A DNA stretch of 64,000 nt from Candidatus Omnitrophota bacterium (GCA_016935525.1 JAFGQU010000002.1:98560-162559), one strand, 5' to 3'. Positions 3,465 to 58,724 are shown, counted from the first letter of the stretch. Notes: generated by a model not told the origin, from the sequence alone. Numbers and translations are program-made.

Positions 3465-4694
3465 CTATTCAATTATATTTTTACTTTTTAAGGATGGTGT
3501 AAGATAAAAAATATTTCCCGAAACAATACTTTCGAGAAACGCTTCGTAATTGACGATGAGTTCTTTCAACGCGTTCTCATCAGTCACCGTGACGGATTTT
3601 TGAGCCATCTTCTTACAATAGGCACATTCAGAACAAACCCGCTGCGCACCGGCATCGTCGTTTAGAAAATGTTCGATGAATCCGTCTAAGGCGCGATTAT
3701 CGATATAAAGCGGCGGAGAAACCATAAGTTCCTTCATTTTGGAAAATCTCAGGACATCTACCTCCAGGGGACGGAAAAAATGCCGTAAGACATGGACCAG
3801 TTTTTTCACCGGGGAAAGATTTTCAAAGACAAAGGTCCGGCTGGGGTCGGAAAACAGATCCAACAGATTTCCGTCGTATCGTCGCCGGGTATAGGCAGCG
3901 ACAGTGCGGACAATATCCCTGGTCGGCATCGTTCTATTTACCAGTTTAAAATTATCTATCCCTATTTCTTCGTACACACCGGTATCTTCCGGACGGATCC
4001 ATCCGGACCGTATAAATTCTTCCGGGTTTTTCAAACGGATATGATTACACATAAGGAAACAATAGTCGACTACGAACCGGTTCCCGCTTTCGTCGGTCTG
4101 AGAGCTATGAGAACTGCTGTTTCCATGGTAAAGCCAGAAAGGACAATTTTTCAAACACTGGAGATTTACTATTAATTGCACTTCGCAAGATACATGATCC
4201 TTTAGTCTTCTCAATAAAAGAAAATTACGGTTGGCCCGGTGGACCGAAAGAGTGATCCTGTCGGCACCCATATCCTGCCAATGCCGCGCTTCCTGGATTG
4301 TATCGATACCGGTTTGAGTTGAAACATACACTTTGAATCTCGGATATCTTTTTTTGATACGCTGGAGGAGGTAGGGATTGGCGACAGTCAATGCGTCAAC
4401 ACCGATATGGTCAAGCCAACCCAGAAGACGCTCGATCTCATATTGCCCTTTCCTTGACCATTCTCTATTCCCCAAACAGGTACTGTTAAGCAGATAGTTA
4501 AAACGTAAACCATATCGATGCGTTTTTTCTACATAGCGCTTCACGGCACGCCGGGAAATGTCCGGTAACGCAAACGAGACTCGTCCTCCCCCGATGATAT
4601 CTTTCGCTAATTTACCGTATATTTCCGCCGCCGCGGTTTTATCGATTTGATCCAGCAATTGAAGGTCCCAATTAGTAGGAATGCTCAGTTGCAT
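3465..4694 (-). CDS. peptidase U32-family (UbiU/RlhA-type TIM-barrel) protein, divergent paralog
   Basis: Aligns with the canonical U32 gene at 8387..9409. 'GVDALTVANPYLLQRIKKR' matches 'GVDAVIISDIGLLRYVREK', 'VYVSTQ' matches 'VHISSC', and 'EVQLIVNLQCLKNCPF' matches 'EIEVFILNERCFYVDGFC'. Has a C-terminal CxxCxxC cluster. Confidence 0.55.
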   Translation of the reverse strand: MQLSIPTNWDLQLLDQIDKTAAAEIYGKLAKDIIGGGRVSFALPDISRRAVKRYVEKTHRYGLRFNYLLNSTCLGNREWSRKGQYEIERLLGWLDHIGVDALTVANPYLLQRIKKRYPRFKVYVSTQTGIDTIQEARHWQDMGADRITLSVHRANRNFLLLRRLKDHVSCEVQLIVNLQCLKNCPFWLYHGNSSSHSSQTDESGNRFVVDYCFLMCNHIRLKNPEEFIRSGWIRPEDTGVYEEIGIDNFKLVNRTMPTRDIVRTVAAYTRRRYDGNLLDLFSDPSRTFVFENLSPVKKLVHVLRHFFRPLEVDVLRFSKMKELMVSPPLYIDNRALDGFIEHFLNDDAGAQRVCSECAYCKKMAQKSVTVTDENALKELIVNYEAFLESIVSGNIFYLTPSLKSKNIIE

Positions 4695-11290: not shown

Positions 11291-12358
11291 ATGGATATCA
11301 ATATATACCCAACTATCCTGGCTATCGGCGAAATGAGTATCTTCGCCCTGCTGATTTTTCATTGTTGGTCACTAAGAGGGAAACGTATTACTTTTACCTT
11401 TTTTATCTTTTCTTTTATCTGCATGGCCTGGAAAGTGATCGGGGTCACGCCTAAACGTCCCCCGAATATCCCTCAGATGGCTTCTCATCATTATCAATTA
11501 CTCTTTTTCCCCCAACAGGCATCTCTTTTAGGGGAATTCATTGCCATCGTGGGGTGGATAATCGTATTTTATTTAAGTTGGCGGTTGGCGGAAAAAATCA
11601 TAGAAAACATTCCCTATTACAAAAACCGGATATTCCCGGTATTATTTTTCAGCGGTCTGGCCGCCATAGGATTCTCTTATGCAATTGAAGCAACCGCTAT
11701 TGCGGCCAAATGGTGGGCCTGGAAATATGAATACAAAGAAATCGCGGCCAGCTCGTTTTTGGTGGGGACGGTACCCTTCTATGCGTTAACCGCATGGTTT
11801 GATACTACCGTGCATTTGTTAGCGGCATATTTTCTTATCGAATGCACCCGATTCAGAAAATATTGGTGGAAGTTCATTTTTCTGTTCATCCCCCAATGTA
11901 GTTACCGATTCGAAATCATGGGATTAAGGGTATATGAAGAATTGGTTATGATAACTTTCCTATCCTTTTTCTCATTTTTCAATAAGTTGCCGTTTATGTA
12001 TGGGAACATAGATCTCGTATCGCCTGTAAGACGGGGAAAGAATATCGCCGGTTATCTACTGAAACGTGAACCCCACATGATACTCATTCTCACCGCAAGC
12101 ATTCTGGCGTATGTGCTGTTCATCGATATGTTCGTAATACAACAACCCGTACTGATTATTTCTAAATTGCCGCTGGGGATCATGCTCCTTCTCGCCGGTA
12201 AAAGGATAAAAACTGCTTACTTTCTTGCCCTCGGGATACTGTTTTTAGCTTTTTTTATCAAAAGCCGGCCGCTTCTGATCACTCTCTTCCCGGCGGCTAT
12301 CTTTCTTGTGTTTGAAGGAAAAGCCCGGTTTACTCAATCCCGCGGTACCAGGCAATAA
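11291..12358 (+). CDS. polytopic membrane protein, paralog 2 of the uncharacterised family
   Basis: Shares 'GWIIVFYLSWRLAEK', 'IEATAIAAKWWAWKY' and 'YFLIECTRFRKYWWKF' with the other two paralogs. Start set at MDINIY to match the paralog N-termini; the track ORF starts at 11207. Confidence 0.5.
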   Translation: MDINIYPTILAIGEMSIFALLIFHCWSLRGKRITFTFFIFSFICMAWKVIGVTPKRPPNIPQMASHHYQLLFFPQQASLLGEFIAIVGWIIVFYLSWRLAEKIIENIPYYKNRIFPVLFFSGLAAIGFSYAIEATAIAAKWWAWKYEYKEIAASSFLVGTVPFYALTAWFDTTVHLLAAYFLIECTRFRKYWWKFIFLFIPQCSYRFEIMGLRVYEELVMITFLSFFSFFNKLPFMYGNIDLVSPVRRGKNIAGYLLKREPHMILILTASILAYVLFIDMFVIQQPVLIISKLPLGIMLLLAGKRIKTAYFLALGILFLAFFIKSRPLLITLFPAAIFLVFEGKARFTQSRGTRQ

Positions 12359-14273: not shown

Positions 14274-15808
14274 CGCTCTTTTATTCTACAATAATATGTC
14301 TCAACGCCGGGTATCTTTTTATCCTGAAAAACTATTTCCTGTTCTCTCAACCATTCCCGTAGCTGCGAGGAAAGATAAGGAACTCCTTCCCAATGAGAAC
14401 ATACGACCCACGCGCCGCGGGCTGAGGAAGCGATCCGATGGATATCGGCTATTTCAAAACCATAGGTACCCTGCAACGCGGAAAAAGAACCATCGTCGGG
14501 AAAATCTGCAGGGTCGATAATTAAATAAATATACTGTCGTAACCGCTGAGGGAAATAATACTGAAATGACGGCCAAATATTCTGAGTCGAGAGGACGATG
14601 ATATCGCCTTCCTTGTATCGTGAGACGATCGACCGGGCGATCTGACGCAGCGGCTTCCGGGGAAATACACTGACGGTCCTGCGAAAATTTTTTTCATCGT
14701 AATAATTCCCTAACGTAAGAACCGTCACCGATAGAAAAAGCGCTCCCATCAGTACCGCAAGGTATTTATATTTAAAAAGCCGTTCCCACCCCAGCACGAG
14801 CACGAGATAGTAACACGGCGACAACGCGATCAACGTACGGGTCAAAAGTATCGGTTTTGCTGAATAAGAGAAAATAATTATAAGCGCCAGAGGAGCCCAT
14901 AGGTAGCTCGCGATGAAACTCCTTTGGCTGAAAGAGTCGTCCTGCCCGGTCTTTCCGGAAACAATGGGATAAAATAGTATCGCCCACAGTAATCCTCCCG
15001 CAGTGATCAGCAATAATAACCATCCGTTGATATTGGCAGTATAATATCCGAACAGGAACTGTTCAAATACCTCAATAAGCCTCTGGATTGAGACCGGAGG
15101 GATCCAAAAATCGTTTCGTATACTCCCCAGATGAGCAAAAAACTTAGCCCCCCAGGGAATGAACAATAAGATGAGTATGCCCTGAGCTGACAGCCAGGAC
15201 GGTATTAATTCCTTATATCTCCTCCAATTGAAAAACAAAAATACATTATGGGAAAGAATAATAAGAAAAGCAAAATAATGAGTGTAAAGAGAAAGGGCAG
15301 TAACAAAGACCGTGATTCCCAGTATTCTACCGTCTCGTGTTTTTAAAAATACCTGAAAAAAATATATCGAACCGAGAGACAATAAAAGAAGAAGAGAATA
15401 CATCCGGATCTCCTGGGCATAATGTATCTGAAAAGGAGAAACCGCGATAAAAAATGCACCGAGCAACGCTATTTTTTTAGAAAAGATCAGTTCAGCGAGT
15501 TTATACAGTAACCAGATGCTGATAATACTGAATACTACCGACGGGATTCTCAGAAAGGCGTCACTTGACCCCAGATGTTTCCACCAATACATGAGAAGCC
15601 GATAGAGCGGAGGATGTGTCCCGACGCTAAAGGTGGTAAAAATACTTTTTAATCCCTGTTCAGCCTGTAATAATGTCTGCGCTTCATCGAACCATACCGA
15701 TTTCACATCCAAACGGAAAAAACGCAACATCGCTCCTACTCCCAGCACACAGATAAGGCCGCTATATCCGCGGGATATCTTTGCGATGAGCTGCGAAATT
15801 ATCGGCAT
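14270..15808 (-). CDS. GT-C fold membrane glycosyltransferase, ArnT/PMT (GT39/GT83)-like
   Basis: 'VWFDEAQT' DE-motif loop after TM1, 'THPPLYRLL', and 'RIPSVVFSIISIWLLYKLAELIF'. Polytopic. Confidence 0.6.
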   Translation of the reverse strand: MPIISQLIAKISRGYSGLICVLGVGAMLRFFRLDVKSVWFDEAQTLLQAEQGLKSIFTTFSVGTHPPLYRLLMYWWKHLGSSDAFLRIPSVVFSIISIWLLYKLAELIFSKKIALLGAFFIAVSPFQIHYAQEIRMYSLLLLLSLGSIYFFQVFLKTRDGRILGITVFVTALSLYTHYFAFLIILSHNVFLFFNWRRYKELIPSWLSAQGILILLFIPWGAKFFAHLGSIRNDFWIPPVSIQRLIEVFEQFLFGYYTANINGWLLLLITAGGLLWAILFYPIVSGKTGQDDSFSQRSFIASYLWAPLALIIIFSYSAKPILLTRTLIALSPCYYLVLVLGWERLFKYKYLAVLMGALFLSVTVLTLGNYYDEKNFRRTVSVFPRKPLRQIARSIVSRYKEGDIIVLSTQNIWPSFQYYFPQRLRQYIYLIIDPADFPDDGSFSALQGTYGFEIADIHRIASSARGAWVVCSHWEGVPYLSSQLREWLREQEIVFQDKKIPGVETYYCRIKER

Positions 15809-17293: not shown

Positions 17294-18718
17294 TCAGTTC
17301 TTACAAGTGACATGCTTCCATATATCCAAAGCGAAGGAAGCTTTCTGAACCATGCTTTTCAAAGAAAAAGCATCTCCCAGGTGCCGCATGATATAAAGGG
17401 GACGGAAATAAAAAGATTTGTAGGCATATTTTAATAATCCATTCAATTCCTGCTCGCTCAGATCCCCTGTCCAAAAAGGCAATTTAAAACCCGCCGTCGG
17501 GTGCTGGGCATAGGTTTTCCAACAATCTCCATAGATACCCTGTTCTAATCCCCTGGTGTACAACTCTGTTCCCGGAAAAGGAGCGACGATGGCAAACATC
17601 GCGTAATTCGGATCGAGTTCAATCGCGAATCGGATCGTGTTCATAATATCTTCTTTTGTCTCAGTCGGCGCACCGATCAAAAAATATAAAAGCATCTGTA
17701 TACCCGCCTCTTTTGTATCAGCAACAACTCTTCGGGCCTGTTCAACGGTAATCCCTTTTTTAAGCACTTTTAACATCCGGTCGGTACCGGCTTCAATACC
17801 GTACTGGATACGGGTACACCCGGCCGCGTTTAATCGTTCCAGCATTTTCCGATTCATCAGATCTACCCGAGCCCGGATATTCCATTTAAAATCCAATCGG
17901 GCAGCGATAATCCGGTCACATATCTCATATACCCGTTGTTCATCAAAATTAAAGAGATCATCGTAGAAAAATATCTCCTGAATGCCATTGGCCACACATT
18001 CGGAGATTTCACTCACGATATTCTCGGGGCTGCGGCTGCGGATCTTATACCCTTGATGTTGGCGAGAGCAAAAAATACACTGATAAGGACAGCCCCGGGA
18101 AGTAATCATTACCGTATAGGGGACATTTCTCCCCAGCAGGGTACGATAGCTGTACTTATCGACTAAATGCCTGGCCGGAAACGGCAATACATCCAAATTA
18201 TCCAGAAAAGGCCTCAGAGGAGTCTCAACGATCTTCCCCTCGTTCTTGTACAATATCCCTTTCACCGCAGAAAAATCACCGTCATGTTCAATTGTGTCGA
18301 CTAATTCGGCAAGGGTTATTTCGCCATCGCCGCGGACAACGAAATCGACCTCAGCAAACTCGATGGTTTGAAAAGGATAGACTGAACAATGGGGACCGCC
18401 GATACAGACTGTGATTTTCTCGTCTACCGCTTTTACTATTTTCGCAATTGCCAAAACATTTGCTAAATTAAACGTGACGGCATATATTCCTACGATACGC
18501 GGAGAAGTATCGCGAAGGTATTTTTCTATCGAGTCTATTCCTCCCGGTTCCCGCTGGCAATCAATAAGATTGACTTCATGAGAGCCGTAGCGAGCCATAT
18601 AGGAAGCAAGATACAATAATCCTAACGGGGGATATATCGAAAGTGACGCCGCAATGTTTTCCAGTAATCCCCTGCTGGTGACCATATTATTCGCAGGATT
18701 AATAAGGGTTATCTTCAT
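17294..18718 (-). CDS. B12-binding radical SAM protein
   Basis: 'RIVGIYAVTFNLANV' B12 domain. 'SRGCPYQCIFCS' CxxxCxxC. Confidence 0.7.
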   Translation of the reverse strand: MKITLINPANNMVTSRGLLENIAASLSIYPPLGLLYLASYMARYGSHEVNLIDCQREPGGIDSIEKYLRDTSPRIVGIYAVTFNLANVLAIAKIVKAVDEKITVCIGGPHCSVYPFQTIEFAEVDFVVRGDGEITLAELVDTIEHDGDFSAVKGILYKNEGKIVETPLRPFLDNLDVLPFPARHLVDKYSYRTLLGRNVPYTVMITSRGCPYQCIFCSRQHQGYKIRSRSPENIVSEISECVANGIQEIFFYDDLFNFDEQRVYEICDRIIAARLDFKWNIRARVDLMNRKMLERLNAAGCTRIQYGIEAGTDRMLKVLKKGITVEQARRVVADTKEAGIQMLLYFLIGAPTETKEDIMNTIRFAIELDPNYAMFAIVAPFPGTELYTRGLEQGIYGDCWKTYAQHPTAGFKLPFWTGDLSEQELNGLLKYAYKSFYFRPLYIMRHLGDAFSLKSMVQKASFALDIWKHVTCKN

Positions 18719-18759: not shown

Positions 18760-20280
18760 TTAACCGGGATGCCCCGCTTCTTTAGGACGAGTGGCGGTCT
18801 CTTTATAATGGTTCGTCCATTTTCCGATCGTATTACGGACTTTAAGTGACCATAATTTAACATAGTCGTTCATTAAAAAATAACCTCCATACACCATATC
18901 GGCAAGAGAGAAAGTCCTCCGCCACAATGTCCGCACGATAAACCAGGGCCGCAGATAAAAAGAAGCCATTGCTTTCCGCTGCAGAGCGCTCAATTCCGGT
19001 TTGGTCATCTTTTCGGGGCTATAGAGGATCTCTCCTTCGGTATCCGACCAATCATACCAGCTGGTATATCTATCGGGATCGTCTTCCCCTTTGGCCGGTT
19101 CCCATTGGTCTTCATAAAATTTCGACCCCGGGAAGGGAGTCGCGATATTGAATTTAACGATGTCCGGATTTACCTTTTTCGCGAATCGGATCGTTTCTTC
19201 GCAGGTAGAGGCATCTTCTTGCGGCAACCCCAATACAAATAATCCTAAAGAAAGGACTCCGGCTTTCCTGGTATATTCCATCGCCTGATACCCTTGCTCA
19301 AGGGTGGCGCATTTATTTACCGAATCAAGGATCCTCTGATTTCCCACCTCAAATCCATACATGATCAAATACAGGTTAGCTTCTTTCATCCTGCGCAGCA
19401 AATCGAGATTTACCTTATCTACTCTAGTCTCAGTAAACCAGCGTATCTTTTTATGCAGTTTGCGTTTTATAAACTCATCACAAAATGCTAAGCCGGATTC
19501 TATCGAAACCGGAAAATAGGCGTCGGTAAAACCGACATACTCTATTCCGAACCGCTCATAAAGATATTCTATCTCATCGATAACTTTATAGATATTCCGG
19601 CAGCGGAACGTATCGTACATCTTATCCTGGGAACAGAAAGTACAACGATAAGGACATCCCCGGGAAGCTTGTATCGGCAAAACAAGTTTATTATAAATAC
19701 CCAGCATAGGATATCTCCGATAGTACCGAAGCTGACACAGATCCCAGGCCGGAACAGGAAGCTGATCCAGATCCGCGATGCATCCCCGTCCTTTATTATG
19801 ATATACTCCCCCGGCGTACCGATAACTGATCCCCTCGATTTCATTCAACATCCGGTCATCCCGTAACGCGGTGAGCGCCTCCAGAAAACTCTCTTCGCCT
19901 TCGCCGCGGACAACAATATCCGCGACATCATCTTTCAGGAGTTCATCGGCAAAAAGGGTCGGATGGATATTACCCAGTATGCAGGTACATGATCTTTTCG
20001 CCGACCGGATCTGGCTTACTAAAGATATCACGTTGCCCATGACCGCGGTCAAACAGGAAATACCGACGACATCAAAATCCTCATCCACGATCATTCTGGC
20101 GATATCCTGGTTGCTTCGGCGGGTAGCATACTGATCTTCGATGGAAACCTCAAATCCCCCGTCCCGAGCGATAGCGGCCAAATAGGCTAGTCCTAACGGT
20201 GGCAGAGGGCTTACCGAACGATAATACCGCGCACTTTTTTGGGCTACATGCGATATGGGGTTAATTATTAAGATTTTCAT
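18760..20280 (-). CDS. B12-binding radical SAM protein
   Basis: 'DVVGISCLTAVMGNV' B12 domain. 'SRGCPYRCTFCS' CxxxCxxC. Confidence 0.7.
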   Translation of the reverse strand: MKILIINPISHVAQKSARYYRSVSPLPPLGLAYLAAIARDGGFEVSIEDQYATRRSNQDIARMIVDEDFDVVGISCLTAVMGNVISLVSQIRSAKRSCTCILGNIHPTLFADELLKDDVADIVVRGEGEESFLEALTALRDDRMLNEIEGISYRYAGGVYHNKGRGCIADLDQLPVPAWDLCQLRYYRRYPMLGIYNKLVLPIQASRGCPYRCTFCSQDKMYDTFRCRNIYKVIDEIEYLYERFGIEYVGFTDAYFPVSIESGLAFCDEFIKRKLHKKIRWFTETRVDKVNLDLLRRMKEANLYLIMYGFEVGNQRILDSVNKCATLEQGYQAMEYTRKAGVLSLGLFVLGLPQEDASTCEETIRFAKKVNPDIVKFNIATPFPGSKFYEDQWEPAKGEDDPDRYTSWYDWSDTEGEILYSPEKMTKPELSALQRKAMASFYLRPWFIVRTLWRRTFSLADMVYGGYFLMNDYVKLWSLKVRNTIGKWTNHYKETATRPKEAGHPG

Positions 20281-20300
20281 CGTTATGTTCCGAAAGTGAA

Positions 20301-20435
20301 TCTCCTCGGACTAAAAGTCCGAGGCTTCTTCACGTCCCGCCAGACTTCGTTCGGCGGGACATCCGCCTCAGGCGGATAATTTCTCTCATTCATCCCCGAT
20401 CTGAAGCCCGGGGACTTCTGCGTAGAAATTAAAAA
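20301..20435. repeat. ~135 nt four-hairpin intergenic repeat, copy 1 (REP-like or structured RNA element)
   Basis: Near-identical to 22993..23127. Hairpins CCTCGGAC-taaaa-GTCCGAGG, GTCCCGCC-(11 nt)-GGCGGGAC, CCGCCT-c-AGGCGG and CCCCG..CGGGG, with the shared tail TTCTGCGTAGAAATTAAAAA. Confidence 0.7.
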
Positions 20436-20542
20436 GCAGGTCGGGATTACCCGTTCGACAACAACACACGGTGTTTATTATAAATCCATATCCTCACCTG
20501 TCAAATACCTCAAACAATCGGATTGGTTCGTGCTTGCATGCC

Positions 20543-22105
20543 TTATTGCCGGTTTTTACGAGAGGCATATATCTTAATCATCGGATGGTACTGGGTGTTT
20601 ATAAAGGAACGGTGGACCGTAGGGATCCGGGGGATAAATTCCTTTATCAATAAAAAACGTTGATCGATATAATCATAAAAACCTTTTACATATCCCTGGG
20701 GATATCTCTCTTTCAAAATAATAAAATCAAATTCGTTATTCCTAAACAAATTCTCATATTGCCTCAGTTGTTCTTCTCCAATAACCTGGACATCATAAGG
20801 ATCTTCCCGACGAAAAACAAAAGACATTCCTCCGCCGTAGCTGTCGCTAAGAATACGGGCGCCATGGGGGACCTCGCGAGAAGCCCACTGCCTCACCATG
20901 ATCCGCGTATCTTTTTGATTCATCCAACGGACATAATATCCGGCCCAAAAAATACTATTGCCCAGAAAAACCGCGCAGGCCAATAAAAGGATCCAATTGA
21001 CACCTCTGTTGAGAAGAAATTTTTTCTTAAAAAAGCACATAACATCCATTAAGAACCACCCGGCAAACAACACCATCCACGGCAACAAAGGGAGCATATA
21101 TCGGGCGCGGTTCAGCATGAAAAATCCCATAATAAAATAATAAGCAAAAGGGAAAGAGAGCATAAAAATGTCTTTTTTTGAGTGACGCCAGACAGCTGCC
21201 GCCATACCGCCTATCGCGCATATGAAAACCGGGAATGTCAATATATCGATGAGTATCCCCGGATAATTCCACCACCCCCGTCGCAGGGGCACCAGATACG
21301 AAGGAAATCCCTGCAGGCCGGCATTCAACTGAAAGAACACATCATTTAAAAAACTTCTGATATCAAAAAACAGAGAAAAATTGCAAAGGAAAAAAATCCC
21401 GGCGGCGATACTACCTGAAAGCAAAAAGTATTTGCTGCTGGAAAATTTGTTTTTCGCCTTTAATAGACCCGCCGCATAAAGGGAAATACTCCCTATAAAA
21501 GCATGGTATTTTGCCGCTATTGCCAACCCCAGCCATAACCCGCTCAATACATAAGCCTTCCGCATCGGACTTTCTCCCAAAAAAATATCGCACATATAAT
21601 AAAAAGCGATAAGTAACAATACTACCATTACCATATCCGCTTTCATCTCGCAGGAATACATCACATGGAACGGGTTGACCGACAAAAACGCTGCGGCAAT
21701 CAATCCTACCTGTGGTGTAAATAATTTCTTTCCGATTCTATACACCATACCTATCTGAAAAATCGAACATACGGCTATCCATGCTCTTCCGCTTAAAATA
21801 ATGATGCTTTCCAGATCCCACGAGAACCATTGCGTAAGAAGCGGGAGCACGGTGATCTTAAGTACGCAAAATGTCCCCCATAACAGGTAGTAAAAAAGAT
21901 GGGGTATAATAAAATTGTGAGGGTTAAGATCGTTGAGATTCAATTCGAGAACGATTCCGGCAATAATGTTTTCATCGATTGCCGGCAACGCCGGGAGATG
22001 ATGCAGAAGGCATTGTATTCGTATCAGAGCGCCGATGAAAACGATCAGGGAGAGTATGTATCGCGGCCAGATTTCTGATAGAACGGTTATTTTCGGTTTA
22101 CACAC
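20543..22105 (-). CDS. GT-C fold membrane glycosyltransferase, ArnT/PMT_2-like
   Basis: Polytopic. 'GRAWIAVCSIFQIGMVYRIGKKLF...FLSVNPFHVMYS' fits the PMT_2 pattern. 'AIDEN' candidate DE loop. Confidence 0.5.
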   Translation of the reverse strand: MCKPKITVLSEIWPRYILSLIVFIGALIRIQCLLHHLPALPAIDENIIAGIVLELNLNDLNPHNFIIPHLFYYLLWGTFCVLKITVLPLLTQWFSWDLESIIILSGRAWIAVCSIFQIGMVYRIGKKLFTPQVGLIAAAFLSVNPFHVMYSCEMKADMVMVVLLLIAFYYMCDIFLGESPMRKAYVLSGLWLGLAIAAKYHAFIGSISLYAAGLLKAKNKFSSSKYFLLSGSIAAGIFFLCNFSLFFDIRSFLNDVFFQLNAGLQGFPSYLVPLRRGWWNYPGILIDILTFPVFICAIGGMAAAVWRHSKKDIFMLSFPFAYYFIMGFFMLNRARYMLPLLPWMVLFAGWFLMDVMCFFKKKFLLNRGVNWILLLACAVFLGNSIFWAGYYVRWMNQKDTRIMVRQWASREVPHGARILSDSYGGGMSFVFRREDPYDVQVIGEEQLRQYENLFRNNEFDFIILKERYPQGYVKGFYDYIDQRFLLIKEFIPRIPTVHRSFINTQYHPMIKIYASRKNRQ

Positions 22106-22850
22106 GTTTTTTTGATTTTAATCTGCCGGGGATAAAACGCGGGACACGAGACATATAATCGGCGTACGCCTGCGGGTATTCACCCAATAATTCTTTCTCT
22201 TCCTGTAACGCCAGCCGCCAGTAAGTAAACAATAGTATCGGCAATAACAATAACGTAGGGAACGTCGGCCAGGAAATACACCATCCCACGAGGATAAGGG
22301 AAATCCCTACATACTGGGGGTGGCGGATGAAACGATAGATACCGTCGGTAACCAGCCCTTCGCCCTTGTATATTTTACGCCAGGCCGCGATGATTAAAAA
22401 AATGCCGAATGCCACCGGAATCCTCCCCAATAAAAGGACCCAGCGGATAATCAGTTCCTGGTGGACAATGAACCGTCGGAAATCGGGGTATTGAAAAAAC
22501 GGGGAAAACATATACATCCCGAGCGCAAACCCGAACATCTCGGTAAATAAAGAGATCCAGAATGCCGTCAACATGCCTTTTGATTTCCAGCTTCTTATAC
22601 GGGTATGTTCCGGCCTCTTACGATAGAGCAAAAAAGGGAACAATAGACAAAAAATAAATACATTGAGGAAAAACATCCCTTTGGGACCGATATATTTTAA
22701 TAAAAAAGCGCTGGTGGGAGGAGGGGCCTTTAATCCCCATAACCCGAGGGCACTTCCACTGTATAAATAGAGAAACCCTGCCACATGGATGATACCGCAT
22801 AGTATCAATATCTTTTCATACAGCCGGCTTTTTACCTTCTCTTTACGCAT
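22098..22850 (-). CDS. isoprenylcysteine carboxyl methyltransferase (ICMT)/phospholipid methyltransferase family membrane protein
   Basis: 'RHPQYVGISLILVGWCI' followed by 'EEKELLGEYPQAYADYMSRVPRFIP' matches the ICMT/PEMT signature. Confidence 0.7.
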   Translation of the reverse strand: MRKEKVKSRLYEKILILCGIIHVAGFLYLYSGSALGLWGLKAPPPTSAFLLKYIGPKGMFFLNVFIFCLLFPFLLYRKRPEHTRIRSWKSKGMLTAFWISLFTEMFGFALGMYMFSPFFQYPDFRRFIVHQELIIRWVLLLGRIPVAFGIFLIIAAWRKIYKGEGLVTDGIYRFIRHPQYVGISLILVGWCISWPTFPTLLLLPILLFTYWRLALQEEKELLGEYPQAYADYMSRVPRFIPGRLKSKKRV

Positions 22851-22992
22851 TGTATTTTCTTGATAAGGAATACAAAATAACTCGTCATTATTCTATAAAA
22901 AACCTCATATACCGATTTATTTTAGCAAAAGGAAGTGCCAAAAACAATCTTTGCTCTCTGGCCAAAAGCAGTTACTCCTCACTTTAGTGAAT

Positions 22993-23127
22993 CGCCTCGG
23001 ACTAAAAGTCCGAGGCTTCTTCACGTCCCGCCGAACGAAGTTTGGCGGGACATCCGCCTGAGGCGGATAATTTCTCGCATTCATCCCCGGTCTAAAGCCC
23101 GGGGATTTCTGCGTAGAAATTAAAAAT
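22993..23127. repeat. ~135 nt four-hairpin intergenic repeat, copy 2
   Basis: Same order of the four hairpins and the same tail as copy 1. The loops of hairpins 2 and 3 are reverse-complemented relative to copy 1. Confidence 0.7.
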
Positions 23128-24301
23128 ACCGGTAAAGTTTTCCGGAAATCATTTCGTCCACACAACGTCTGTATTTCATTTTCAAATCGGCAAGACGTTC
23201 ATCATCAATTTCTCCGACTTTCGCCATAACCTCGAAACAATATCCGCAGTCCTCACACACCTGCTTGCTGCATTGTTTTTCGATGATGCCGGCAAGAAAA
23301 CCGTCGAGTTTTTTGTTCTCAATATACACCGGATTCCCGATGAGCCCTTTAAATTTTTTCAGCTTAAAGATATTTACCGATCCCGGCCGTAAAAAATATT
23401 TCAATGTACGAAATACATTCATTTTTTTGAAAAGAATGCTTTTTGACGGGTCGGGAAATAAATCCAACAAATTGCCGTCGTAAGTCCTCTTCACATACGC
23501 ATCCACAATGGATAGGATTGTAGAGGTAGTCATCCCCCTATCGATAATCTTGAACCAATCGATCCCGATTGTTTCGTAATACCCGGTATCTTCCGGACGG
23601 ATCCACGTGCTACGGATAAAATTGACCGGTTCGGCAAGCTGCTGATAACGGCACCTGATCCGGCAATAATCAATGACAAACCCCCGTGATACATGTCCAC
23701 TTTGAGAAGCATGGGAAGCTATATTCGCATGGTAGATATAGAAAGGGCAATTATGTAAACAGTTTACGTTTACAATAAGCTTCAACTCACAACGGACATC
23801 TTTACGGATCTGCTTAAGAGTCGAAAAATCTCTATTCAAATCGACATTAAAAAGAGTAATACGCCCAGCTCCCAGATCCTGCCAGTATTTCGCCCGGCGG
23901 GCGGTATTCACATAGGCTAAATCCGAAACGCATATGTTCAAGTGAGGGTATCTCTTTTTTATCAATTCTAAAAGATAGGGAGTTGCCACTGTCACCGAGT
24001 CGACTTTGATCCCGACCAACCAGTCAAGAAGACGGGTAATCCGTTTTTGCCCCCGACGGGTCCACTCCGCATTATCCAGACACGTGCTATTTAAAAGATA
24101 GTTAAACTCGATCCCGCAGCCGTGGGCCTGGGTGACGGCGTGAGCCAATCTTTTCTTTGATATGAAAGGCAACTGAAACGAATGTTTTCCTCCGCCGATA
24201 TCATCGGCAGGAAGTTTTCCATAAAGCTCTTTTACCTCAGAGAACTCCGCCACCGAAGCGATCAGGCTACAATCCCCATTAAAAGGAACCGTGAGTTTCA
24301 T
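23120..24301 (-). CDS. U32-family-like protein, divergent paralog
   Basis: 'FNYLLNSTCLDNAEW', 'GVDSVTVATPYLLELIKKRYP' and 'ELKLIVNVNCLHNCPF' parallel 3465..4694 and the canonical U32 gene. Start trimmed to MKLTVPFNGD; the track ORF starts with TTG at 24478. Confidence 0.5.
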   Translation of the reverse strand: MKLTVPFNGDCSLIASVAEFSEVKELYGKLPADDIGGGKHSFQLPFISKKRLAHAVTQAHGCGIEFNYLLNSTCLDNAEWTRRGQKRITRLLDWLVGIKVDSVTVATPYLLELIKKRYPHLNICVSDLAYVNTARRAKYWQDLGAGRITLFNVDLNRDFSTLKQIRKDVRCELKLIVNVNCLHNCPFYIYHANIASHASQSGHVSRGFVIDYCRIRCRYQQLAEPVNFIRSTWIRPEDTGYYETIGIDWFKIIDRGMTTSTILSIVDAYVKRTYDGNLLDLFPDPSKSILFKKMNVFRTLKYFLRPGSVNIFKLKKFKGLIGNPVYIENKKLDGFLAGIIEKQCSKQVCEDCGYCFEVMAKVGEIDDERLADLKMKYRRCVDEMISGKLYRYF

Positions 24302-25500
24302 CTTTTCTCTTTCCTGTAGGAGAACATATCCCCCGAGACAATACTTTGGAGATATCGAGCATAGCAGTCTAACATTTTTTTTCTCTGGGCCTGGTCTATA
24401 CGAAGCGCGCGCGCGATAAAATTTTGGCAGTCCGGACAATGTTCCCCGCTTAGCCCCTGAGGATGAACCATCAGCCAATGCGCTAAAAAGCCGTCTAATG
24501 ATGCATTGTCAACGGAAATACCGGAAGCATCCCGTAGCGACTGCATCGTGGCGAATTTAAATATATTCACCGCCTGAGGACGGAAAAAGTAACGGAATGT
24601 CTGCAAAAAAGGTGTTTTTCCTCGAGAAATTTTACCCTCAGAAGTACGTTCCTGAAAAAGGGCCAAGAGATTCCCTTCATACTGTCTTTGGGAATAACTT
24701 ACGAGCATTTTCTCTACATGGGACGTACTTAACGGACGATTGGCGAATTTAATGCTGTCGATCCCTATTTCTTCATAGTAACCCACATCTTCCGGCCGGA
24801 TCCAGGCCGAATAGATGAATTCACCGGGATCGCATAATTTTATATAGTTACAGCGCAAGAAACAATAATCGATCAGGAATCCTCCCGAAGGATGACCGGA
24901 TTGAGAGGCGTGAGCATGCGACACGGCATGGTATTGCCAGAAGGGGCATTCGGAAAGACAGGTAAGATTGGCGATAAGCTGGATTTCGCAGCGCAGCTGT
25001 TTTTTCAAAAGCCGTAAGAGAGGAAAATTGCGGATAACACTCGATGTCGTCGCCAAAGTTATTTTATCGGCACCTAACGATTCCCAATAACGGGCCCGCA
25101 CAAGAGAATCTACGCCGGCCATGGTCGATACCGACACCGTAAGCGTCGGATAATTATGTTTGATAAGTTCCAACAAATAAGGGATCGATACGGTTACCGA
25201 TTCGACGCCGCTATCAATAAGCCATTGCAGAAAATGCCGGATCTTCCGCTGGCCGGCGCGGGTGAATTCACGATTATCCAGACACACCGCATTGAGCAGA
25301 TAGTTAAACCGATATCCTTTATCCCGTACTTCTTTTACATGGCGTTTGAATCGGCCGCGCGAGATGTGCGGTAACATAAAAGACGGTCTCCCTCCGCCGA
25401 CCGGGTCATAGGCTAAAGCTCCGTACAATTCCTCTACGGTATCGTGAGGGATCGCGTCTAAAAGAGCGTTCTCCCAATTCGTAGGAATAACAAATTTCAT
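24298..25500 (-). CDS. U32-family-like protein, divergent paralog
   Basis: 'FNYLLNAVCLDNREF', 'GVESVTVSIPYLLELIKHNYP' and 'EIQLIANLTCLSECPF'. Start set to MKFVIPTNW, adjacent to the upstream stop. Confidence 0.5.
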   Translation of the reverse strand: MKFVIPTNWENALLDAIPHDTVEELYGALAYDPVGGGRPSFMLPHISRGRFKRHVKEVRDKGYRFNYLLNAVCLDNREFTRAGQRKIRHFLQWLIDSGVESVTVSIPYLLELIKHNYPTLTVSVSTMAGVDSLVRARYWESLGADKITLATTSSVIRNFPLLRLLKKQLRCEIQLIANLTCLSECPFWQYHAVSHAHASQSGHPSGGFLIDYCFLRCNYIKLCDPGEFIYSAWIRPEDVGYYEEIGIDSIKFANRPLSTSHVEKMLVSYSQRQYEGNLLALFQERTSEGKISRGKTPFLQTFRYFFRPQAVNIFKFATMQSLRDASGISVDNASLDGFLAHWLMVHPQGLSGEHCPDCQNFIARALRIDQAQRKKMLDCYARYLQSIVSGDMFSYRKEKR

Positions 25501-28789: not shown

Positions 28790-28953
28790 AATTATATTCT
28801 TCGAAAAAACCTGCCGGAATTCCGGCACCAAGAAGACTGTTTATTATACCATTGTGCCCTTTTTTTTCAAGATAACCGCAATGAGCCTATTCAAAATCAT
28901 TGCGCCTTAAGATATTTTACCCTATAATAATTTTCCCTACTACCGATAGCACA

Positions 28954-32435: not shown

Positions 32436-33875
32436 TTAATGATAGAGATAGTTAAACAGAGCCCAGCCCATTTCAATCTTTCTCATAAAATTTCTTAACA
32501 ATCCTGGCTGCCCCATGTGTTTAAATATATTCCTCACAATAAAATCGGGACGCATATAAAAACGCCGGTACGCGTATTTGAACATCTCTTCGATTTCTTT
32601 TTCCGATATATGCTTATCCCAGAGATGGGGCGAGAAATTCGGACGCGGACAAAGAGCGAATTCTTTCCAAAAATCTTTTTCATAAATTTTTTCCTTTAAT
32701 CCAAGTTCATATAATTCGGTCCCGGGAAAAGGGGTAGTAATCGAAAAATGCGCATAATCCGGGTCCAATCTGATCGCAAGATCTATAGTGCTCAAAATAT
32801 CTGCTCTCTGTTCTTCGGGAGAGCCGATCATAAAATACGCGACGGTTTCCAGACCGGCACGTTTTACTTTTTCAAAAGCGCGCTCAACCTGAGTAAGACT
32901 AAACCTTTTCTTCAGCACCTCAAGCGTCCTTTCCGTTCCCGCTTCAACACCAAGCTGGATCCTCTTGCACCCTGCCTGTTTTAACCTTTTTAATACATCA
33001 AAACTCTTGACGGTATCGACGCGGGTACGGATCCCCCACCGTAGGTTCAATCCCTGAGCAATGATCCTATTACAAATGTCCTCCGCCCGGGATTGATCTA
33101 ATAAAAATACTTCATCGACAAAAAATATCTCTTTTATTCCCAACCGGGAACACTGTTTCATCTCTTCTACGATATGGTCGCTCCTGCGAAACCGCACCTT
33201 TCTATTAGAAGGGGGATTATAGCAAAACATGCACTGATAAGGACAGCCCAGGCTTGAGATCATTGTCGTCGAGGGAGAGTCTTCGGAAAGGACATTATAA
33301 TATTCGGATATGGGAAGTAGCGTCCGGTCGGGAAAAGGTAATGAGTCTAAATCATACCCCTCATCGGGAGGCTGGGTCTTGATTATTGTGCCGTTTTCCT
33401 TATATAACAATCCCCGTACCGGATACAGATCGGCTTTTTTCTCCAAAAGAGAAACCAACTGGGTAAAAGGGATCTCGCCGTGTCCCAGGATAATCGAATC
33501 AATCGCCGGACTGGAAAGTGTTTCTTCAGGATAAATGTTCACATGAGGGCCGCCTAAACTTATATGCGCAGAAGGAGCATACCGCTTTATCGACTCGGCA
33601 ATACAATACACATCAAAAAGCGTAAATGATGTGGTGTACATCCCCACCACATCCGGCTTGAATTGATGGATAACACTTTCTATTTTTAAGGATCGAGCAC
33701 TCCTCAACTGTAAATCGATTACTTTCACCTGATGCTGAGTAGAATGCTTAAGATAAGTCGCTACATAAAGCAGCCCCAGAGGAGGAGAAGCCATCGCTGC
33801 CTCATCAATAATGGTAGGAAAATTTGATTTCGCTATATACGTGTTCGCTGGGTTAATCAACAAAACGTTCATCAC
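32436..33875 (-). CDS. B12-binding radical SAM protein
   Basis: 'DVVGMYTTSFTLFDV' B12 domain. 'SLGCPYQCMFCYN' CxxxCxxC. Confidence 0.7.
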   Translation of the reverse strand: MMNVLLINPANTYIAKSNFPTIIDEAAMASPPLGLLYVATYLKHSTQHQVKVIDLQLRSARSLKIESVIHQFKPDVVGMYTTSFTLFDVYCIAESIKRYAPSAHISLGGPHVNIYPEETLSSPAIDSIILGHGEIPFTQLVSLLEKKADLYPVRGLLYKENGTIIKTQPPDEGYDLDSLPFPDRTLLPISEYYNVLSEDSPSTTMISSLGCPYQCMFCYNPPSNRKVRFRRSDHIVEEMKQCSRLGIKEIFFVDEVFLLDQSRAEDICNRIIAQGLNLRWGIRTRVDTVKSFDVLKRLKQAGCKRIQLGVEAGTERTLEVLKKRFSLTQVERAFEKVKRAGLETVAYFMIGSPEEQRADILSTIDLAIRLDPDYAHFSITTPFPGTELYELGLKEKIYEKDFWKEFALCPRPNFSPHLWDKHISEKEIEEMFKYAYRRFYMRPDFIVRNIFKHMGQPGLLRNFMRKIEMGWALFNYLYH

Positions 33876-37507: not shown

Positions 37508-37794
37508 TTTTTTAGATGTACTTTATCTCAACGTATACGCTAAGCCTTAAAAATATATTTAAAATCATTGTACTGGGTTCGATTTGAGTGTCAAGCCAGC
37601 TATTGCCTCAGGATCGACCGGCAGATCATCTGTCCGCTGCTCTTCGGTGTGGTTTCTATCTCCCTGCCGGACATAGACAATCTCTTGCATACAATATCCC
37701 AAATATGATACTATGATGACAATGTTTTATTACACGCATCGTCATTACCGGAGGAACCATATTTCTACTTAATCCTTATTCCTATCGGAGAAAT

Positions 37795-58639: not shown

Positions 58640-58670
58640 GTTCCTTGCCAGCCTCACAGGACCGGCTTAA
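58640..58670 (-). promoter_or_regulatory. PyrR-binding anti-antiterminator loop
   Basis: Minus-strand GGUCCUGUGAGGCUGG matches the PyrR consensus RNUCCNGNGAGGYU. It sits in the loop of a GCCGG/CUGGC stem between the promoter and the terminator. Confidence 0.6.
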
Positions 58671-58680
58671 AGGTTATTTG

Positions 58681-58709
58681 AGTATACCGTATGCCGAACG
58701 CTTTGTCAA
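58681..58709 (-). promoter_or_regulatory. sigma70-type promoter of the pyrR-pyrB-pyrC operon
   Basis: Minus strand TTGACA, a 17 nt spacer, then TATACT, upstream of the PyrR-binding loop. Confidence 0.5.
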
Positions 58710-58724
58710 TACATAATCATCGTT

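Follow-up and report, generated by a model that had tools for sequence, protein, structure and literature searches.

A 141-nt four-hairpin intergenic repeat with one hairpin inverted between its two copies in a gene cluster of Candidatus Omnitrophota

In a minus-strand gene cluster of a Candidatus Omnitrophota metagenome-assembled genome, two near-identical stretches of hairpin-rich DNA stand in the same orientation between genes, and the loop of one of their hairpins reads in one stretch almost as the reverse complement of the other. The locus thereby raises the questions of what kind of element this is, how it came to occupy two places, and by what event one hairpin was turned round. They are taken up here for the window, i.e. 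the whole stretch of 64,000 nucleotides that was analysed (GCA_016935525.1 JAFGQU010000002.1:98560-162559), in which an earlier note, made from the sequence alone, had described a structured repeat of 135 nt with four hairpins.

The repeat search and the alignment of the window gave a direct repeat family of 141 nt with two copies, 91% identical and gapless, so that the near-identity and the common orientation described in the earlier note were borne out, while its limits had to be moved: the unit is real, and the 135 nt counted from 20301 fell 6 nt short at the left, and the second copy is present, its interval having been shifted by +1 (22986-23126 instead). The identity drops to the background directly beyond the unit limits on both sides, and the flanks of the two copies are unrelated on either side according to the alignment and blastn-short; the drop at the limits indicates that the block stands by itself and is not the central part of some longer duplicated segment. 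The ends of the unit, AGTGAATC... and ...GAAATTAAAAA, do not form an inverted repeat, and the flanking bases, CCGAA and GCAGG at copy 1, ACTTT and TACCG at copy 2, hold no target-site duplication. A blastn-short search with the unit found no further match in the 64-kb window. The positions of the repeat, its hairpins and its neighbours are collected in Table 1.

Table 1. The repeat, its hairpin domains and its surroundings (hairpins read on the plus strand; rows from the U32-like genes to the radical SAM start codon follow the order of transcription)
Feature	Unit position	Window position	Strand	Basis or remark
Two U32-like genes			(-)	first in the order of transcription
TAA stop of U32-like gene		23120-23122	(-)	from the first bases of copy 2
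Copy 2 of the 141-nt unit		22986-23126	(-)	repeat search, alignment, folding; all four stems perfectly paired
Spacer, 135 nt				between copy 2 and the next gene
PEMT-like methyltransferase		22850-22098	(-)	
GT39/PMT_2 glycosyltransferase		22105-20543	(-)	
Spacer, 107 nt				between the preceding gene and copy 1
Sigma-70 consensus TTGACA-16-TATAAT, perfect		20477-20504	(-)	motif scan; 42 nt upstream of copy 1
Copy 1 of the 141-nt unit		20295-20435	(-)	repeat search, alignment; present in Logan contigs L001 and L008
Spacer, 14 nt				between copy 1 and the next gene
Radical SAM gene, ATG		20280	(-)	
H1	2-39	20296-20333 (copy 1); 22987-23024 (copy 2)	(-)	alignment, folding
H2, copy 1: GTCCCGCC-AGACTTCGTTC-GGCGGGAC	40-66	20334-20360	(-)	inverted match between the copies
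H2, copy 2: GTCCCGCC-GAACGAAGTTT-GGCGGGAC, flipped		23025-23051	(-)	inverted match between the copies
H3: ATCCGCCT-N-AGGCGGAT	67-83	20361-20377 (copy 1); 23052-23068 (copy 2)	(-)	alignment
H4	84-136	20378-20430 (copy 1); 23069-23121 (copy 2)	(-)	folding, comparison of the copies
Coding repeats D2-D5		3936-4019, 23540-23623, 24739-24822; 18067-18121, 19632-19686, 33221-33275		repeat search

In plus-strand unit coordinates, the unit consists of four directly abutting hairpin domains, H1 to H4, followed by a run of five A. H1 has an outer stem GTGAA/TTCAC and an inner stem (G)CCTCGGAC-TAAAA-GTCCGAGG(C), the latter being the hairpin that had been reported as identical in the two copies, as the alignment indeed has it, with no flip; H2 has an 8-bp stem, GTCCCGCC with GGCGGGAC, and an 11-nt loop, AGACTTCGTTC in copy 1 and GAACGAAGTTT in copy 2; H3 is a perfect 8-1-8 palindrome apart from its centre, which is C in copy 1 and G in copy 2; and H4, reading AATTTCT..GCA..ATCCCCG, an 8-nt loop, and CGGGGAT..TGC..AGAAATT, is built of outer, middle and inner stems. 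The arms of H1 and H2 are perfect over 8-10 bp, and about 70-77% of the unit positions are paired. No hairpin arm matches another hairpin in either orientation, only the self-complements being returned when the unit was compared with itself by blastn-short. As minus-strand RNA the copies fold with z = -6.8 (copy 1) and -10.9 (copy 2), as compared with -5.9 for copy 1 as plus-strand RNA and -11 for copy 2 as plus-strand DNA, and in the shuffle test no shuffle folded as well as the copies. Five of the 19 perfect hairpins of at least 8 bp in the 64 kb fall within the 282 nt of the two copies.

The copies differ at 12 positions, six of them in H2, one at the centre of H3 and five elsewhere. Within the 27 nt of H2 there are six mismatches in the direct comparison and a single one after reverse complementing, which makes the domain 96% reverse-complementary between the copies; at six of its seven asymmetric positions copy 2 is the reverse complement of copy 1. 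Given the background divergence of 5% in the rest of the unit, the probability of at least six differences among the 11 loop positions is 8e-6, so that one inversion plus one substitution is the economical account of this cluster, and the proposal that the loop was inverted across its own stem, as opposed to having diverged by point changes, is sustained: five of the six differences vanish on reverse complementing, and the residual one sits in a stem. H2 shows what is expected of loop inversion by template switching, namely a perfect inverted repeat, a loop whose length of 11 nt is kept, and unchanged stems. The same flip had been suggested for H3, and the C/G exchange at its centre does fit it, with weak support, a single transversion explaining it equally well; the two are inseparable because the palindrome has only one asymmetric position. 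H1 and H4 have asymmetric loops too, and neither is flipped between the copies.

The remaining substitutions, at unit positions 9, 92, 105, 109 and 121, are all single, and four of them sit in stems; the H4 domain carries four of the differences, each a single substitution. Every stem difference is one-sided, copy 2 having the Watson-Crick pair and copy 1 a mismatch or a wobble. RNAalifold found no true compensatory change or covariation between the copies, a comparison of two sequences that has little power; the double change that it reported (columns 84/93) lies inside the flipped H2 loop and was rejected as a by-product of the inversion. Five of the six substitutions that do not belong to the flip are in stems, about the neutral expectation when 70-77% of the positions are paired, and the stem substitutions at the neutral rate thus give no sign of selection on the structure, again with the little power of two sequences. 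At two of its stem changes copy 1 has a G-U wobble if the minus strand is read and an A-C mismatch if the plus strand is, an asymmetry that hints weakly, and not significantly, at the transcribed strand.

A further view of both copies comes from the Logan contigs (k=31) of SRR13394437, which carry identical proteins and may share reads with the metagenome-assembled genome. One of them, L001 (2713 nt), runs from unit position 39 of copy 2 to unit position 18 of copy 1, and L008 (57 kb) begins at position 39 of copy 1. The copies share a 38-nt block, unit 10-47, and differ at positions 9 and 48. A graph with k=31 must break there because two sequences with the common block 10-47 differ at 9 and 48, and the break points of L001 and L008 thus confirm two copies with differences at these positions. 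Copy 1, including the orientation of its H2 and its unique flank, is reproduced on one uninterrupted contig, L001. A third contig, L011 (25 kb, with U32-like genes), ends at window 23097, its positions 14848-14878 being window 23127-23097. Its last 31-mer holds exactly one non-repeat base (23127), and the next 31-mer past its end (TTTTTAATTTCTACGCAGAAATCCCCGGGCT) lies wholly in the repeat; at unit 121 it has the base specific to copy 2, and copy 1 does not contain it. The break at the repeat boundary therefore implies that copy-2-type sequence occurs also in another context in sample SRR13394437; in the contig sequence this hints at a third copy as the simplest reading, a strain variant or a coverage gap being the alternatives.

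All the genes adjoining the copies are on the minus strand, and the placement of the copies in gaps of a minus-strand gene cluster, as previously noted, was confirmed, no other gap in the run of genes from 28831 to 15809 being about 260-270 nt long. Copy 1 lies between the stop of the GT39/PMT_2 gene (20543) and the ATG, at 20280, that opens a set of three B12-binding radical SAM genes, whereas copy 2 begins inside the end of a U32-like gene, whose stop codon is within the unit, and precedes the ATG of the PEMT-like gene (22850) by 135 nt; the two insertion sites thus differ in neighbours and geometry. The U32-like gene (23120-24301) ends in ...SGKLYRYF*, its stop and its last one or two codons (the final Phe) being repeat sequence (23120-23126), and its protein stops right after the conserved SG..Y motif, where the paralogues carry 5-12 more residues. 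The comparison of these protein ends suggests that the repeat may have replaced the original C-terminal tail, which looks like an insertion at a gene end. In the 107-nt spacer upstream of copy 1 stands the only 12/12 match to the sigma-70 consensus in the window (20504-20477; shuffles expect 0.05), so positioned that the radical SAM genes probably have a leader of about 190 nt with copy 1 inside it. Copy 2 is intercistronic, and the motif scan gave no promoter match after it. That the copies differ in their placement with respect to promoter, stop codon and start codon speaks against a dedicated riboswitch- or attenuator-like design.

As regards promoters in the window generally, four matches of at least 11/12 to the sigma-70 consensus were found (58681-58709, 37567-37594, 28843-28870 and 20477-20504), all on the minus strand, all intergenic and directly upstream of the pyrR, UbiA, GATase and radical SAM runs, as against 1.3 in shuffles; near-consensus -35/-10 promoters appear, from these motif positions, to be used at the operon starts of this Omnitrophota genome. 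The contig L010 stops at its positions 11660-11721 (window about 58650-58710) in the pyrR leader, after a TTGACA-17-TATACT promoter and at a hairpin, GGTCCTGTGAGGCTGGC, that resembles the PyrR-binding loop; no PyrR element from Rfam was found there at the gathering score.

The genes around the repeat belong to a paralogue-rich cluster on the minus strand (270-37500) with five B12-binding radical SAM genes and one further radical SAM gene, four GT39/PMT_2 glycosyltransferases, four or five peptidase-U32-like genes, and genes for a UbiA prenyltransferase, a PEMT-like methyltransferase, a GT2, a carbamoyltransferase and a polysaccharide deacetylase, several members being without a Pfam match; judged by this gene content, the cluster probably modifies an envelope lipid or glycan. 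The direct-repeat families D2-D5 of the window are coding motifs of its U32-like and B12-radical-SAM paralogues and not non-coding repeats. A small protein encoded by the unit itself was considered and rejected: one frame is open in both copies, with no homologue and no consistent start codon, and such a frame is an expected by-product of GC-rich palindromes.

Relatives and further copies were sought in several ways. A loop-tolerant pattern of H2 and H3, GTCCCGCC-N8-14-GGCGGGACATCCGCC, exact in the stems (a less stem-dependent pattern might have suited better), gave only chance GC-rich matches in the GTDB species genomes and the JGI metagenomes (L002-L007, in GC-rich genomes) and no match in IMG/VR, where two more patterns, one of hairpin 1 plus the linker and one of the 3' side of hairpin 4, gave no match as well. 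BLASTN returned only 45-nt chance matches in haloarchaea from plasmids and nothing from phages. The concatenated translated open frames of the unit, meant to catch spurious ORFs called over other copies, matched none of 5.8 billion proteins. A profile of the open minus-strand frame, run against 1.84 billion representatives, gave one lone weak match (P0007). The covariance model made from copies 1 and 2 scored it at only 4-6 bits, and it was rejected as a relative: what had matched is a spurious ORF called across a 177-nt tandem repeat of a JGI metagenome, unrelated to the unit. That tandem repeat (L014 4648-5686, in metagenome 3300001815, contig JGI12109J20283_10131936; 5.9 copies, 96% matches) is GC-rich and hairpin-rich, lies between aminotransferase (hemL-like) and coproporphyrinogen oxidase genes and was called as a 230-aa ORF. 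Blastn-short and the covariance model found no third copy in about 85 kb of the organism's DNA, that is, in the window and about 16-20 kb of Logan contigs (L009 and L010). The GT39 protein between the copies is MBN2482684.1 of a Candidatus Omnitrophota metagenome-assembled genome, and its nearest other homologue is only 36% identical, which means that the collections hold no close relative. The earlier note had named a restriction to two copies without structural covariation as the outcome that would speak against its reading; for the roughly 85 kb of accessible DNA this is nearly what was found, with the end of L011 hinting at a third copy.

The account to which about an even chance is given here is that of a lineage-specific repeat of four palindromes which was copied as a block to two intergenic sites, had its H2 flipped by template switching, and forms hairpins in mRNA. 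In a long cluster of minus-strand genes, two unrelated intergenic sites would each have received the non-coding 141-nt unit as one discrete block, copy 2 being closer to the original and better preserved, and copy 1 having decayed through one-sided substitutions. After the copies had separated, H2, and possibly H3, would have been reverse-complemented in one of them, the likely cause being a double template switch of the replicating polymerase across the 8-bp inverted repeat of H2 itself. The flip is thus likely to belong to a known class of mutation and not to a programmed switch; since template switching homogenises stems, it may also help to keep copy 2 perfect. Both copies being on the transcribed strand of operons, the messages would carry four stacked GC-rich hairpins, which might act as a passive structural barrier that shields the upstream message from 3' exonucleases, or as a processing or pausing site; by analogy with the REP/BIME sequences of enterobacterial operons, we infer a role in mRNA stability or processing. 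A dispersed family is not demonstrated, since only two copies were seen and the scans of about 85 kb and with patterns gave no other, and two direct copies flanking a two-gene block fit a local origin also.

A local origin, by which the pair is all there is and arose when the block of the PEMT and GT39 genes was placed between the U32-like and the radical SAM genes, is judged unlikely, and yet is a serious rival, as only two copies were actually seen. The block could have come in on a circular intermediate, of Campbell type or cassette-like, by one crossover with a copy already in place, or there could have been a local duplication of which the parts other than the repeat were later replaced. 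There are exactly two direct copies, 2.7 kb apart, which bracket exactly two genes with their spacers, the downstream edge of the bracketed block carries the perfect, outward-facing promoter, and no other copy turned up in the approximately 85 kb or in the collections searched. However, the window holds no integrase or recombinase, the Pfam scans of its 49 ORFs having found no integrase, transposase, Y1_Tnp or RAYT domain; attC-like R''/R' core sites are missing at consistent offsets; the bracketed block is composed like its neighbours, a foreign origin of its genes being rejected on a composition profile that shows no distinct block; and the end of L011 at the repeat boundary points to another context of the copy-2-type sequence.

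Quite improbable, in our estimation, is a cis-regulatory RNA under selection, for instance a leader or attenuator, a site of processing by RNase or an RNA bound by a protein, which would serve the envelope-modification genes and of which the four hairpins would be the functional architecture. The very stable fold on the transcribed strand, the position of copy 1, which has a consensus promoter before it and the leading gene of a run after it, and the two stem changes of copy 1 that remain G-U pairs on the minus strand and become A-C on the plus strand would all suit such an RNA. Against it, only a tRNA passes the Rfam gathering thresholds in the window, and a permissive search of 20200-23300 gave at best 14-22 bits, as compared with thresholds of 43-80, i.e. 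noise with E > 1; the copies are placed differently relative to promoter, stop codon and start codon; the stems show no compensatory change and are substituted at the neutral rate; the flip swaps the RNA triloop of H2 from GAA to UUC, which a sequence-specific loop contact would not tolerate; and beside distant homologues of the flanking genes (loci L012 and L013) the covariance model found no related element.

Only a slim chance is left to the palindromes as double-stranded DNA sites of dimeric proteins, i.e. operators or sites of nucleoid proteins, for which the orientation of a spacer would be irrelevant and flips neutral because such sites are symmetric. The perfect 8-1-8 palindrome of H3, the perfect 8-10 bp arms of H1 and H2 and the strong promoter match directly upstream of copy 1 would accord with it, but no promoter match stands near copy 2, the neighbouring genes include no regulator, and four unlike palindromes with GC-rich arms, outer closing stems and wobble-type changes look more like folded single strands. 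Similarly slight is the prospect that the array is a mobile or switchable unit, either copied in the form of folded single-stranded DNA by an enzyme whose gene lies elsewhere, a route that would account for the sharp ends in the absence of terminal inverted repeats or target duplications, or flip-flopping at H2 and H3 in the population, in which event the RNA triloop would alternate between GAA and UUC and might modulate the paralogue-rich envelope-modification operons on either side. An assembly artefact by mis-joining between the copies, or a population mixture of both H2 orientations, is barely credible in spite of the metagenomic source, the Logan breaks in both copies and a copy 2 interior (23025-23096) without independent recovery, for an 8-bp stem is far below the assembly k-mers and the reverse-complemented loop must exist in reads, L001 carries copy 1 with its H2 orientation and unique flank uninterrupted, and the Logan branch points demand another sequence with differences at unit 9 and 48, such as copy 2 has.

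If the reading of a block-copied repeat with a template-switched hairpin is right, no structured intergenic repeat would have been described before this one in Omnitrophota, a phylum of which almost all knowledge comes from metagenomes. The paralogous copies would also be a clean bacterial case in which an 8-bp stem has had its 11-nt loop inverted, and would add one more instance of a multi-base change that arose by template switching. Hairpin flips mimic clustered substitutions and inflate divergence estimates, a useful caution. A new biological question would arise only if the element proved to be numerous, mobile or actively flipping.

Among the known systems, the nearest in its workings are the repetitive extragenic palindromes (REPs) of enterobacteria and pseudomonads and their composites, the BIMEs. 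The REPs are imperfect palindromes of one type, 20-35 nt (20-40 nt) long, with a GTAG/CTAC head next to the stem, and occur usually in more than 100 copies per genome, in alternating orientation in BIMEs and linked to RAYT, a Y1 transposase of the IS200/IS605 type (PMC2817692). The Omnitrophota element shares with them its extragenic position, its GC-richness, its composition from palindromes, its placement inside operons on the transcribed strand with no U-tract, the occurrence of individual palindromes in either orientation and, by analogy, a plausible protection of the upstream mRNA. It differs from them in that its four palindromes are unrelated and of fixed order, with the arms CCTCGGAC, GTCCCGCC, ATCCGCCT and ATCCCCG; its sole GTAG (unit 128-131) lies inside the outer stem of H4 and heads no palindrome; the 64 kb hold two copies and the additional 16-20 kb or so none, the L011 break hinting at a third; and the 49 ORFs of the window include no RAYT. 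The label of a REP- or MITE-like element that had been offered for the repeat is therefore not established, since terminal inverted repeats, a target-site duplication, a palindrome-adjacent GTAG head and a RAYT, transposase or integrase in the window were all missing; a MITE in particular was rejected because neither copy has the terminal inverted repeats or the target-site duplication.

The attC sites of integrons, e.g. the Vibrio cholerae repeats, resemble the element in being structured direct repeats, 60-140 nt long and about 90% identical, which stand after cassette genes and enclose small blocks of genes. However, an attC site consists of a single long, imperfect hairpin, carries R''/L''-L'/R' core sites (RYYYAAC / GTTRRRY) and adjoins an intI gene, whereas the hairpins of the element are four and separate, its borders lack core sites and the 64 kb encode no tyrosine recombinase, so that this assignment was rejected. 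Nor are the copies canonical terminators, in agreement with the first description, for no U-run follows the last hairpin on the transcribed strand; the minus strand reads there GAUUCACUUUCGG in copy 1 and GAUUCACUAAAGU in copy 2, which removed the intrinsic terminator from consideration, and the terminator scan gave only a plus-strand match at H3 and a weak flank hairpin.

The inversion of a loop or spacer by template switching at short inverted repeats has been documented, including in bacteria (PMC8794818; PMC8604942; PMC5941160), and chloroplast hairpins undergo it as 'minute inversions' (PMC7393888); taken together, these sources cover bacteria, yeast, animals and chloroplasts. H2 agrees with the footprint given there (PMC8794818, PMC8604942, PMC7393888) in its perfect 8-bp inverted repeat, whose stem is untouched, and in its asymmetric 11-nt spacer, reverse-complemented with the length kept. 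The bacterial loop inversions reported are mostly of 4-8 nt and in rRNA, while here 11 nt are concerned, in a repeated intergenic element. Template switching is moreover a mutational mechanism and not a family of elements, and it explains the difference between the copies but not the existence of the repeat.

The pneumococcal BOX, the enterobacterial ERIC/IRU and the Bacillus cereus bcr1 elements are intergenic, co-transcribed units of about 100-150 nt with several stem-loop modules, present in tens to hundreds of copies and with a varying number of sub-units. The likeness of the element to them lies in its size, its several stem-loop modules and its place in intergenic regions of operons; in sequence and by covariance model it is without similarity to any Rfam family. 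The element of this cluster is thus an ordinary-looking, previously undescribed structured intergenic repeat, which works most like REP and BIME sequences and is a member of neither family.
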